A stretch of DNA of 64,000 nucleotides. Origin: a virus. The first letter of the stretch is position 1; the number at the start of each line of letters is the position of its first letter. Below the pieces are notes generated by a model, which did not search any database, was not told the origin of the DNA, and worked only from the letters and a program-made list of their open reading frames with translations. Location of the stretch: positions 32,704 to 96,703 of the IMG/VR virus record IMGVR_UViG_3300023245_000006; one strand, 5' to 3'. Position numbers and translations under genes: made by a program. Below, piece after piece: positions 28,022-36,727 of this stretch.

Positions 28022-29461
28022 TTAAATTGTTACTTGATTGTATCGTTCTGCATTTATGGTTTCCAACATGACATCCAGCGGAGAGATAGTGTTACCCGAA
28101 AGCAACGTCTTCAAGATAGATGGCGAACACCCGCTTACGAGACATGTTCCCTTATCATCCTTGGTGATCGGTGACTGACTGTTTCGGGCATTGACATTCC
28201 AGAACACCAAGTTTGGTTGCACATATCCTGCTGCTTCATACTTGAGACGGGTAGCCTCATAGTTTGTAACAGACTGTCCACGACAAGCCATATCGAATTC
28301 CATATCCGAAACAATGTAGAGGGTATCAGGCATATCTTCCTGCGGAACATCATTCCGCATTCCTGTAGTAAGAATCAGATCGAACGTTGCTTGCAAGTTA
28401 GTAGACATATCCCAATCCGCCCTTTCAAGGTTCTGAACCTTCTCTCGAATATTGTTTCCAACAACAGATTGAAGTGTTGGGGTTTCGGAGAACGTGAAGA
28501 ACTTGTTGGCAAAGGCACCCTTGTTCTTTTCGGCAAAATAAATTGCCAAAGAGATAGAGACTGCCATTGGTCTGCCAGTCATGCTACCGCTCACATCCGC
28601 AATAACGATTCCGTTGTGCTTGTTCTCTCCGATATAATCAGGTAGAGCATCCCAAAGGACATCCAAAGTATCACTCTTATCACATCGATTCAGAATCTTT
28701 TCAACAATTTCGTAAGGATACAATGTAGATGCATTGATCTTAGTTTCACCCTTCTTAACTGCCGCCAAAAAGTTTTCATAACGTTCCTTATCGTGCTTAC
28801 GGAAGGCATCTTTATAGGTCAAAGATGCCTTCGAAGGAACATGAGAATATTCGATCTGGTCCCACTTGTTTGCACAAAGAAGAGGCTCAACAACCTTTGT
28901 CTTCTCACGCATATGAGAAAGAGTTTGACGGTATTCCTTAGATGATAGTCCAAGGTGCTTACGCAAAATCGTAGCAAGTCGTCTAGTTGACTTAGAAGAA
29001 GTATTTTCCGAACAAGACCATTTGAAGATTAGAGAGTTCGTCTCGAACCCCTTGTTCCACTCATTACCCCAAAATTCTAGAGCCTTGTCCCAAGACTTGG
29101 TTCCTTCCAAGAAAAAAAGATCATCATATCGACCATAGAACACGATGTTTTCTAGATTATTTACGACAATAGTTGGATACTCATTGCCCAACCACTTGAT
29201 GATTGTTCGGAAAGTCTTACGCTCGCCCATTCCCCCTCGGGCGTCACGGAAATAAAACATGGTTTTTAGAGCCAGTTCTTGATCTTCGGCAAATGCCTTA
29301 GAAAACAAGGAAATAACATCTTCATCAGAACGAGAACGCATAGCACCACCTAGACCAAAGAAATCCAATAGATTACTCAAAGTAGACTTGTGAGTAAAGG
29401 CACCATTCTCGGTTAGAGTGAAATTTTGGTTCTTTTCGATAGAGTTGATTAGTGAGTTCAT
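28022..29461 (-). CDS. DUF2828-type TROVE/Ro60-like protein with vWA domain
   Basis: TENGA, RDARGGMGER, MIDAS DVSGSM, SDMEFD and FWNV. Confidence 0.85.
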   Translation of the reverse strand: MNSLINSIEKNQNFTLTENGAFTHKSTLSNLLDFFGLGGAMRSRSDEDVISLFSKAFAEDQELALKTMFYFRDARGGMGERKTFRTIIKWLGNEYPTIVVNNLENIVFYGRYDDLFFLEGTKSWDKALEFWGNEWNKGFETNSLIFKWSCSENTSSKSTRRLATILRKHLGLSSKEYRQTLSHMREKTKVVEPLLCANKWDQIEYSHVPSKASLTYKDAFRKHDKERYENFLAAVKKGETKINASTLYPYEIVEKILNRCDKSDTLDVLWDALPDYIGENKHNGIVIADVSGSMTGRPMAVSISLAIYFAEKNKGAFANKFFTFSETPTLQSVVGNNIREKVQNLERADWDMSTNLQATFDLILTTGMRNDVPQEDMPDTLYIVSDMEFDMACRGQSVTNYEATRLKYEAAGYVQPNLVFWNVNARNSQSPITKDDKGTCLVSGCSPSILKTLLSGNTISPLDVMLETINAERYNQVTI

Positions 29462-29469
29462 ATTTTTAT

Positions 29470-29505
29470 TTGGTCTTGATTGGTCTTGATTGGTCTTGAT
29501 TGGTC
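29470..29505. repeat. 10-bp tandem repeat TTGGTCTTGA (~3.5 copies)
   Basis: seen directly, in the 5' UTR of the vWA gene. Confidence 0.85.
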
Positions 29506-29553
29506 AAGATGCTGGTTTTTTCATTAAGATAAGTTGATTGCTGCAAGCACCTT
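29506..29553 (-). ncRNA. CAGCAAUCAA stem-loop element, copy B
   Basis: AAGGUGCU/AGCAUCUU stem enclosing CAGCAAUCAA...AAAAAAC. Confidence 0.6.
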
Positions 29554-29588
29554 TATATTGTTATGTTATAGATTTTTATTAAATTGTC

Positions 29589-29627
29589 AAGATGCGTTTT
29601 TTCCATTTTGATTGCTGTCTGCATCTT
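29589..29627 (-). ncRNA. CAGCAAUCAA stem-loop element, copy A
   Basis: AAGAUGC/GCAUCUU stem with the same loop motifs. Confidence 0.6.
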
Positions 29628-32547: not shown

Positions 32548-33230
32548 ATATCTTCGGAATAGTTTCGAATCTCTAGATCTTTAATCTTCAAAAGTTTGGC
32601 TTTTTTATCTAGTGACATATCCCACTCATCTCGATAGTTGCGATGAAGTTGTTTCCATCCATCGTTCTGTTCCATGAAATTATTTAGGCGAAACAATTCA
32701 GATTCATAATCATCTTCTCGGGTTTTTATTTCGGTGATATATGCTGCCTTATATTTCCATTCGAGCATGTGTGCAGAAACTTGTGGGAAATAATATTTAT
32801 AAATAACATTCTTACTACCATAAGAAATGGTCTTTCTTTTAACCTTAAACCATTTACGTTCAAAGGATGGGTTAAATCCGGATTTATCAAACTTTTCCTG
32901 AGTCAAGGGTCGTAGTAATTGTCCTTCGACATAATAAGACAGCGCATCTGGACCATAAGATATAATTTCACTAGATGTTCGATAACTCTTTCCGTCGTTC
33001 TTTTTACCCAAAACCCAATGATTACAGGCATCGACAACTTGTTGAACCTGTTCACCGATAGAAGAACGAAGAACATCTTTACGAACTTGGAAGAATCTCC
33101 AGTGCCCAACGAAAATCTTATTTTCGAGAGGTTTGTAAGGTGCTTTTCGAATAAGATCATACAATTCGCTGATCCGTTCATTCACACGATGGAATTGTTT
33201 GAATTTCGATTCTTTTTTATTGAGTAACAT
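32544..33230 (-). CDS. hypothetical protein
   Basis: ORF; probable start MLLNKKE; TTGACA upstream. Confidence 0.65.
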   Translation of the reverse strand: MLLNKKESKFKQFHRVNERISELYDLIRKAPYKPLENKIFVGHWRFFQVRKDVLRSSIGEQVQQVVDACNHWVLGKKNDGKSYRTSSEIISYGPDALSYYVEGQLLRPLTQEKFDKSGFNPSFERKWFKVKRKTISYGSKNVIYKYYFPQVSAHMLEWKYKAAYITEIKTREDDYESELFRLNNFMEQNDGWKQLHRNYRDEWDMSLDKKAKLLKIKDLEIRNYSEDI

Positions 33231-36176: not shown

Positions 36177-36375
36177 GAAATTAAAAATGCACCCTCTCAA
36201 ACGTCTAGTCTTTTTTAATCACGGTCTCGATAACCGCTTTTTATTTAACCCATCTAGGCCATACCCCAATGTTTGTCTCGTTTTGTGAGAGAAATTGTAT
36301 GCTGCGAACCTTGGACTCGAACCAAGACTATACCTGATTCGGGGTGACTACCATTCCCTAGTTCGAATTAAAAAA

Positions 36376-36639
36376 TTTTTCTTGTTATGTGCATATTACG
36401 CCAAAAGAGAATCAGACCTTACCATTTACGGGGTATCCTTTTACTTCCACGGTTAGACGAAATCCAACATGAACGTCAATATCTAACTTTGACACGCTCA
36501 TGTTATCACAGACACCCATAAAATATGGACCGTTGATATCGGAGACTCGCGTTTCGCTCTACTCTTTAAAGGTAATTGTCATAGACAATCAGAATTTATC
36601 ATTCGTTGCTGCTTCTAAGCCAACCTCTAACAAGAAAAA
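36376..36639 (-). ncRNA. ncRNA mimicking 23S rRNA helices 43-44 (L11-binding domain)
   Basis: GAGGUUGGCUUAGAAGCAGC, CCUUUAAAGAG and GCGUAAUA in rRNA order inside a 12-bp closing stem. Confidence 0.75.
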
Positions 36640-36727
36640 TGGCGGATCATAATCGCATCGAACGATTAGCCTTTTAGAGCTACTACTATTTTCAAAATAG
36701 TTTGAGGAGCCTACCTCAGTATGATCC
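36640..36727 (-). tRNA. tRNA-Ser(UGA)
   Basis: ACUAU-UU UGA AA-AUAGU, V arm, CCA. Confidence 0.85.

Follow-up and report, generated by a model that had tools for sequence, protein, structure and literature searches.

Can a phage carry, outside any ribosomal RNA gene, a free-standing imitation of a functional center of the ribosome, and what might such an RNA do? The question is raised by an element on the minus strand of a 64,000-nt stretch of viral DNA (positions 32,704 to 96,703 of IMG/VR virus record IMGVR_UViG_3300023245_000006; hereafter the window), in which an original prediction, made from the sequence, had recognized a noncoding RNA resembling the GTPase-associated center (GAC) of 23S rRNA—i.e. 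the 58-60-nt uL11/thiostrepton domain formed by the top of helix 42 (H42), H43, and H44 (E. coli 1051-1108). The source record spans 96.7 kb with 36.5% G+C, and its CheckV completeness estimate of 46% implies a phage of roughly 200 kb. We find that the element is a slightly aberrant member, of an insert form that we call type A, of a large phage RNA family for which no description was located.

All coordinates of the element refer to the minus strand of the window, and bases are numbered as in E. coli 23S rRNA, with nucleotides 1050-1109 as printed in PMC1802607 serving as the reference. The GAC blocks follow each other in the same order as in 23S rRNA and form the same helices, and both the block order and the 12-bp closing stem proposed from the sequence are found, with every block at its predicted place (Table 1). 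Specifically, the H43 5′ strand/1067-loop block GUUGGCUUAGAAGCAGC is matched exactly at 36624-36608, and the 17-mer GTTGGCTTAGAAGCAGC has a single occurrence in the window, whether matched exactly or with up to 2 mismatches, and none in 100 shuffled sequences. The loop sequences are those of the ribosome, including the equivalents of A1067 (36616) and A1095 (36397), both of them kept as claimed, and the G1056/A1103 mismatch is likewise present. The tertiary partners are also the same: U1060 and A1088, the U1082-A1086 hairpin, and G1071/C1072 facing the H44 pairs. In the window element, positions 1057:1081 are A-U, 1058:1080 G-C, 1059:1079 G-C, 1060/1088 U/A, and 1082:1086 U-A, the G1058-C1080 pair being a compensated version of the U-A pair of E. 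coli; all helices and all tertiary partners are retained.

The ends of the element form a perfect 13-nt inverted repeat (36628-36640 with 36375-36387, spacing 240 nt; repeat search), giving a closing stem of 12 bp, or 13 bp if the adjacent A/U is counted, which is long and AU-rich and has A1055-U1104 where most family members have G-C. H44 reads GCGUAAUA followed by U and GCACA, with the extra U at 36393 after A1098 and with A1101 at 36390. A search of the 96.7-kb record with the covariance model R1 (see below) finds a single copy of the element.

The element also differs from the 23S GAC. It is free-standing, uses the 12-13-bp AU stem in place of H42, and lies in a phage tRNA array; in addition, it has an insert at 1090/1091 (with the helix P_a and a UUUG linker), a smaller one at 1078/1079, A1101, A1076, and the extra U. 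Inserts of ~160 and ~33 nt had been placed at junction positions, and this holds for the large one, which measures 159 nt, but the first is 32 nt long and lies inside the 3′ strand of H43. The region of this first insert (36562-36607) folds as two hairpins with -7.4 kcal/mol (z -2.3).

Table 1. Position of the GAC-mimic element, its parts, and the adjoining tRNA features in the window (listed in transcription order within the element; bases numbered as in E. coli 23S rRNA)
Feature	Position	Strand	Basis or detail
Whole GAC-mimic RNA, both closing-stem strands included	36376..36639	minus	264 nt; sequence reading and R1 match
Closing stem 5′ strand UUUUUCUUGUUA, stand-in for top of H42	36639-36628	minus	perfect inverted repeat with 36376-36387
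H43 5′ strand and 1067 loop GAGGUUGGCUUAGAAGCAGC = E. coli 1056-1075	36627-36608	minus	20/20 bases identical to bacterial consensus
Positions 1076-1078 = AAC (family consensus CAU or CAC)	36605..36607	minus	anchored numbering
32-nt insert between 1078 and 1079, inside H43 3′ strand	36604-36573	minus	two hairpins: 36604-36592 and 36591-36573
CCUUUAAAGAGU = E. coli 1079-1090	36572-36561	minus	H43 3′ strand C1079 C1080 U1081, U1082-A1086 hairpin, G1087 A1088 G1089 U1090
Second insert, 159 nt, between U1090 and G1091 at H44 base	36560-36402	minus	sequence reading
P_a 5′ strand AGAG, helix framing large insert	36560-36557	minus	pairs with CUCU 36409-36406
Junction CGAAA, then P_b branched variable domain, ~100 nt	36451..36556	minus	comparison with five relatives
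Type A module: purine-rich strand GGAAGUAAAAG, hairpin P_c (GAU ACC CCG-UAAA-UGG UAAG GUC), then UGAU	36411..36450	minus	
P_a 3′ strand CUCU (36406-36409) and UUUG linker (36402-36405)	36402..36409	minus	family comparison
H44 GCGUAAUAUGCACA = E. coli 1091-1103 plus one extra U	36401-36388	minus	sequence reading
Closing stem 3′ strand UAACAAGAAAAA, then six-U run	36387-36376	minus	sequence reading and repeat search
tRNA-Ser(UGA), encoded CCA	36640..36727	minus	ARAGORN; ends ...GAUCCGCCA at 36640
tRNA-like sequence directly 3′ of the element	36296-36372	minus	perfect T arm CUUGG-UUCGAGU-CCAAG, 6-bp acceptor-like stem

Base-pair counts over 89 family members, with positions anchored on the conserved blocks, reveal compensatory changes in all GAC helices, which bears out the earlier claim of a selected RNA. 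Pair 1058:1080 is UA in 34 members, GC in 30, AU in 20, and CG in 2, pair 1057:1081 is AU in 64 and CG in 12, and pair 1082:1086 is UA in 37, CG in 31, and AU in 10, while the closing stem that stands in for H42 includes all four Watson-Crick pair types across the family. U1060 and A1088 are kept in 89/89 members, and G1091-C1100 and C1092-G1099 are invariant. In alignment A3, which comprises 18 members and excludes the window element and its kin, the structure has 96.4% of its cells paired, and both sides vary in 17 of 28 pairs; covariation scores 0.53, compared with 0.18 in shuffles (0 of 500 reach 0.53), and only 29-50% of cells are paired in slid controls.

The model R1, built from A3, matches the window element end to end, at 36378-36636 and over all model positions 1-188, with 97.2 bits (E 3.4e-30). 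R1 also gives ~60 bits to a true 23S GAC (locus L334), and the score alone has no power to separate mimic from rRNA; it is thus the family-specific traits, and not the score, that set the mimic apart. Among these traits, the family has two that are fixed: the insert at 1090/1091 with P_a and UUUG, and A1101, which is found in 89/89 members where true 23S rRNA reads GCUCAC. The H44 block of the family (GCGUARNAGC, then ACAC, i.e. A1101 for the U of rRNA) is present in the window element with one extra U. No Rfam family, LSU (large subunit) rRNA, GOLLD, and ROOL included, matches the element at the gathering score or at E values up to 10, and at the same thresholds there is no match to LSU rRNA (RF02541) anywhere in the window; Rfam 15 contains no family to which the element belongs, and at 14 other loci of the family the sole non-tRNA signal is one sub-threshold local match to the GAC of LSU rRNA. 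As judged from these sequence comparisons, the results support a selected, structured noncoding RNA and not a stray piece of rRNA.

The family comprises 151 distinct elements; their median length is ~206 nt, and they come from IMG/VR contigs together with a small number of bacterial assemblies. The 17-mer is present in more than 117 IMG/VR contigs, and after it almost all of these read CAUC-N-UUUAAAGAGU and then diverge, whereas true 23S rRNA continues unbroken as GAGUGCGUAAUAGCUCAC. Nearly all members have YUUUG-GCGUARNAGC-ACAC downstream, 41-313 nt on, which is also the range of insert lengths across the family (159 nt in the window element). Members with a variable 5′ block were added by a further scan that took the 3′ block as its anchor. 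In bacterial assemblies, 13 of 120 matches to the 3′-block pattern are real—i.e. they carry the 5′ block—and most of these are contigs of metagenome-assembled genomes (MAGs), the rest of the matches being mostly due to chance; as such, the family is essentially viral.

Members are also found in cultured phages. As a blastn query against 50,697 phage records the window element returns no match, since beyond a stretch of 20-35 nt its divergence is too great. When a canonical member serves as the BLAST query, it retrieves Pseudomonas phages pf16, Astolliot, UNO-G1W1, and Milchi, Aeromonas phage 4_4572, Xanthomonas phages XacN1 and XbC2, Serratia phage BF, a group of Erwinia jumbo phages, and Cronobacter phage GAP32, the last of which is probably a carrier on the strength of its BLAST match. 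R1 scores are 143 bits for pf16, 140 for Astolliot, 113 for 4_4572, 75 for XacN1, and 66 for BF. In every one of these cultured carriers the locus of the element is either unannotated or assigned to a hypothetical protein. For example, in the published complete genome of pf16 (KU873925.1, ~29,410-29,610; L331 2446-2698) it takes up the whole of a 253-nt gap, free of annotation, that separates tRNA-Asn from tRNA-Pro, and an unannotated gap is likewise occupied upstream of tRNA-Met in 4_4572 and in Astolliot.

In the same BLAST search, enterobacterial 23S records match the GAC block of the query at 100% identity. The element of Serratia phage BF departs from the enterobacterial 23S GAC at four positions (1070, 1076, and 1082:1086), and the mimic is thus not a fresh copy of host rRNA. 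Of the assemblies taken for a comparison with host rRNA, four MAGs contain no rRNA, and the sole isolate assembly has several different 23S types.

The genomic setting recurs across the family. In the window, the element lies inside a run of 22 tRNA genes (ARAGORN), all on the minus strand, and its closing stem begins at 36639, the base directly after the CCA of tRNA-Ser at 36640; the 15-nt gap from the end of this tRNA to G1059 consists entirely of closing stem and G-A-G (1056-1058). Among 79 nonredundant viral loci, 57 contain tRNAs, and 427/427 of those tRNAs are on the strand of the element, while the fetched flanks of the other 22 loci contain none. In 18 loci, as in the window, the end of a tRNA lies 10-20 nt ahead of G1059 and abuts the closing stem, and in 20 loci a tRNA begins within 100 nt downstream. 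No terminator-like site occurs between the body of tRNA-Ser and the element, the one that was detected being inside the tRNA gene (36718-36703), and a scan for sigma-70 promoters found 46 compared with 40 expected from shuffles, so no promoter was assigned. On its 3′ side the element is followed by a tRNA-like sequence and then by tRNA-Glu; no open reading frame (ORF) of note overlaps it, and none follows. The upstream tRNA-Ser(UGA) has a long variable arm and is unreported by the Rfam tRNA model, even at E values up to 10.

The large insert is itself organized. In A3, the helix P_a that frames it has compensatory changes in 4/4 pairs, with 100% of cells paired, and the linker before G1091 reads YUUUG in nearly all members. 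The domain P_b is kept, at 75-82% identity, only in the five relatives L055, L112, L024, L031, and L021; across these and the window element (six sequences) it has four compensatory pairs, and its internal pairing is partly resolved. The type A module (a GGAAGUA... strand and an ACC-hairpin-UAAGG) is common to 37 of the 151 distinct members, including the window element, and its hairpin has the form NNN-ACC-CCN-tetraloop-N'GG-UAAG-N'N'N'. Both the outer and the inner stem of P_c covary in A3 (columns 203:223, GC 10 and UA 8; columns 210:215, GU, GC, AU, and UA), and the loops are GNRA-like or UMAC-like (GAAA, GAGA, and UAAC), with UAAA in the window element. Because this tetraloop sits in a conserved module, it may serve to brace the GAC fold through a tertiary contact: the insert leaves at the base of H44, and its GNRA-like tetraloop module may steady the core.

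The large inserts contain no other parts of 23S rRNA, given that in a blastn-short comparison of 55 elements with two real 23S sequences the GAC blocks alone were matched. Likewise, no copy of the sarcin-ricin loop was found in the insert of the window element. Sarcin-ricin-loop-like hairpins do occur inside the large inserts of 2/151 members, L027 (GCAU-AGUA-C-GGGA-G-GAA-AUGC) and L320, and in these few members both halves of the factor-binding site may be imitated. Another insert architecture that recurs, distinct from type A, reads GAGU-UGCRAG ... GGGGAAGGACAAG ... and is found in L008, L010, and L335 (Xanthomonas phage XacN1); an insert of this GGGGAAGGACAAG type is probably also present in L333 (Serratia phage BF).

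Given a GAC-like RNA in so many phages, with which molecule might it interact? Clustering of 1,325 ORFs from the 79 loci and the window genome reveals no conserved neighboring protein, sharing being limited to small groups of related phages. In 40 carrier records (101-519 kb, 22 of them at least 90% complete), uL11 is found in 0/40 and in 0/22 of the more complete ones, and there is none in the window genome record. A bL12 domain scores over the cutoff in 3/40 records, and a translational GTPase (GTP_EFTU) is present in 2/40, both of them proviruses. With no conserved neighbor, no uL11, and few bL12 domains or GTPases in the carriers, any protein partner is probably host-encoded.

An accepted view of phage tRNA islands is that they counter defenses directed at translation. 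The reading that we favor, with a probability of roughly 55%, is that the element is a stable noncoding RNA of the tRNA array that acts in trans as an off-ribosome imitation of the GAC and engages a host molecule. It would be transcribed along with the phage tRNA array and probably excised by tRNA-processing enzymes, because its closing stem starts right after the CCA of tRNA-Ser. The two ends of the element rebuild the 23S GAC tertiary domain (H43, the 1082-1086 hairpin, and H44, closed by the surrogate H42), and the RNA would bind, away from the ribosome, a host molecule that recognizes the A1067/A1095 face. Candidate ligands include a toxin or defense enzyme directed at the GAC, a translational GTPase, and RelA, possibly with host uL11 as a cofactor, or else uL11 itself. 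Tre23, for example, ADP-ribosylates H44 at 1095-1098 and cripples the GTPase activity of EF-G (PMC8661411). A broader proposal is that the family represents a new class of phage RNA—i.e. decoys of an rRNA functional center used for counter-defense or takeover, which absorb GAC-attacking enzymes (Tre23-like ADP-ribosyltransferases, methylases, or nucleases) or capture GTPases or RelA—and this we put forward tentatively, as a possibility with the odds against it.

Several observations weigh against the favored reading. A1067 is replaced in ~11% of the sample anchored on the 3′ block, so that the loop face is not invariant and no single ligand is strongly favored. Taken as a whole, the element has a minimum-free-energy fold of unremarkable stability (z -1.2); the structural evidence lies in the covariation. 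A stoichiometric decoy would also be inefficient against an enzyme unless the RNA were abundant. In the window element itself, the extra U of the H44 loop is found in 1/151 members, A1076 leaves G1062 unpaired, and none of the five closest relatives has the 32-nt insert that splits H43 midway; with these three departures, the copy in the window is possibly impaired. At position 1076, C is kept in 86/89 members and in 87% of the 3′-anchored sample, while the window element has A (36607).

Among the alternatives is a pure uL11 sponge, the leading idea of the original prediction: the RNA would titrate newly made or exchanging host uL11 and leave ribosomes without it, RelA would not be activated, and the stringent response would be damped. 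Isolated GAC RNA of 58-60 nt is known to bind uL11 tightly, and the recognized core (U1060, A1088, G1059-C1079, and the 1082-1086 hairpin) is kept in the element. For the L11-GAC RNA complex, the interaction surface of the L11 C-terminal domain (CTD) was defined for docking as 1058-1060, 1062-1065, 1075-1083, and 1088 (PMC1802607). Since this surface includes 1075-1083, the insert and A1076 lie in the contact strand of the uL11 CTD; most of the contact bases are kept in the window element, but 1076 is A and the 32-nt insert splits 1078/1079. An insert at 1078/1079 is found in 16/94 members of the 3′-block-anchored sample (~17%), and close relatives of the window element have lost one base at 1080/1081. 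Given these inserts, the changes at 1076, and the lost base, the uL11 CTD surface is not the most constrained part of the RNA, and we rank the pure sponge below a decoy that presents the loop face. Furthermore, existing ribosomes already hold their uL11, so the effect would presumably be slow within one infection cycle. A sponge of this kind thus seems unlikely, and the uL11/RelA idea of the original prediction is weakened, on sequence grounds, for the window element.

The ribosomal GAC touches the elbow of the incoming tRNA. This, together with the strict placement of the element on the tRNA strand and flush with tRNA ends (here directly after a CCA), makes a tRNA-related role conceivable, in which the RNA would dock tRNA elbows or organize the processing, folding, or stability of the tRNA operon transcript; GOLLD and ROOL are likewise found near tRNA islands (PMC12286853). 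However, the 22 loci without tRNAs in their flanks do not fit such a role, a processing signal has no need of near-perfect GAC loops and tertiary partners, and A1067 is known to touch the tRNA elbow only weakly, even on the ribosome. We hold a tRNA-related role to be as unlikely as the sponge.

Somewhat less probable again is that the RNA acts on or with the ribosome or another large assembly, whether by docking to the 50S stalk, by delivering bL12/uL10 to phage-specific complexes, or as an RNA-only multimer. Phages do encode bL12 domains that contact uL11 and elongation factors (PMC6375957), and ROOL and GOLLD form nanocages (PMC12286853). Yet the surrogate H42 stem is short, variable in sequence, and devoid of a conserved uL10-site sequence, the rarity of bL12 among the carrier records (3/40) does not favor delivery, and the sequence gives no sign of self-association.

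A comparably low chance attaches to the copy in the window being a decaying, nonfunctional member of an otherwise functional family. Its unique extra U, the A1076 opposite G1062, and the H43 insert missing from its five closest relatives would all fit decay, but its helices all pair, its tertiary partners are kept, and it scores 97.2 bits with R1. In addition, the two hairpins of the H43 insert are clean, a counterpart with two similar hairpins occupies 1078/1079 in L060, and both L055 and Serratia phage BF also have A1076. Finally, a captured or misassembled fragment of a real 23S rRNA gene, to which the 20-nt identity and the existence of such fragments in viral records (L102/L046 and the end of Paenibacillus phage Pd_22F) might point, is refuted by the lack of flanking 23S sequence, of further 23S similarity in the inserts, and of any LSU rRNA match in the window, as well as by the family-specific traits and the covariation, in keeping with the earlier claim that this is no simple rRNA fragment.

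We know of no ribosomal functional center that occurs naturally as a free-standing copy outside rRNA. The pseudo-ToxI RNA of phage PhiTE is reportedly a phage decoy that imitates a host RNA and neutralizes a host protein, and it is said to have been shown to work; it copies an antitoxin RNA repeat, whereas the element copies a ribosomal center, and its role as a decoy is a proposed one. Searches of full-text literature, the core sequence included, returned papers on the real GAC only and no description of the family, and the accessible part of a survey of ten thousand candidate viral RNAs makes no mention of rRNA likeness.

Other known RNAs share some of these features. Leaders of ribosomal-protein mRNAs (e.g. 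L10_leader, RF00557) are likewise nonribosomal RNAs that imitate the rRNA site of a ribosomal protein, but they are cis-acting 5′ leaders with a loose likeness to rRNA, whereas the element copies rRNA almost base for base, precedes no ribosomal-protein gene, and has no match to an Rfam leader. GOLLD and ROOL resemble the element in being phage-encoded, highly structured, and located in or beside tRNA islands (PMC12286853). The element differs from both in being much smaller, in the absence of a GOLLD or ROOL match in the window or at the 14 other family loci searched with Rfam, and in having as its core a recognizable copy of a ribosomal center, which is not known for GOLLD or ROOL. The cryo-electron microscopy structure of OLE RNA has a pocket like the ribosomal site of bS21 (RpsU), and sequestration of RpsU has been hypothesized (PMC12286853). 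OLE is thus likewise a noncoding RNA with a ribosome-like site for a ribosomal protein, but it is bacterial, measures ~600 nt, and contains no copy of rRNA sequence, its likeness being one of shape in a solved structure.

True 23S sequences are also present in viral records. The 15-kb viral contig of L102 (1745-1840; near-identical in L046) has a contiguous, insert-free GAC, with flanks AGACAACUAGGAU... and ...CUCACUAGUC that are identical to a real Firmicute-type 23S (L323); after this GAC come a hairpin, a Shine-Dalgarno site, and a small hydrophobic ORF. This GAC has the appearance of a piece of rRNA that was captured, and is possibly a picture of how the family originated, or else a leader. 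L334 (Paenibacillus phage Pd_22F, MZ092003.1, ~83,900-84,100) and several 2-7-kb "phage" records contain true 23S rRNA, from host DNA or contamination, and such 23S-bearing phage records are false members in any family search.

The tRNA-like sequence directly 3′ of the element receives no tRNA call from ARAGORN or Rfam; it folds with -21.3 kcal/mol (z -2.3), and it may belong with the tRNA-like RNAs of the same array that lack a D arm. The proteins that neighbor the element in the window are uninformative. About 7 kb from the tRNA array, at 28022-29461 on the minus strand, lies a 479-aa protein with DUF2828 and DUF7788, which matches PHROG 850, annotated as "RNA-binding protein" (E 4e-147).

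The family amounts to a natural mutagenesis series of the GAC fold, in which inserts are tolerated at 1078/1079 and 1090/1091 and bases 1061, 1067, and 1097 vary. Its cultured carriers confirmed by R1 (pf16, Astolliot, 4_4572, BF, and XacN1) make the function of the RNA directly testable. If the imitation of the GAC is true, it would represent a previously unseen way for phages to interfere with translation factors, with the stringent response, or with defense or toxin enzymes aimed at the ribosome, and phage tRNA islands would hold a second kind of cargo.

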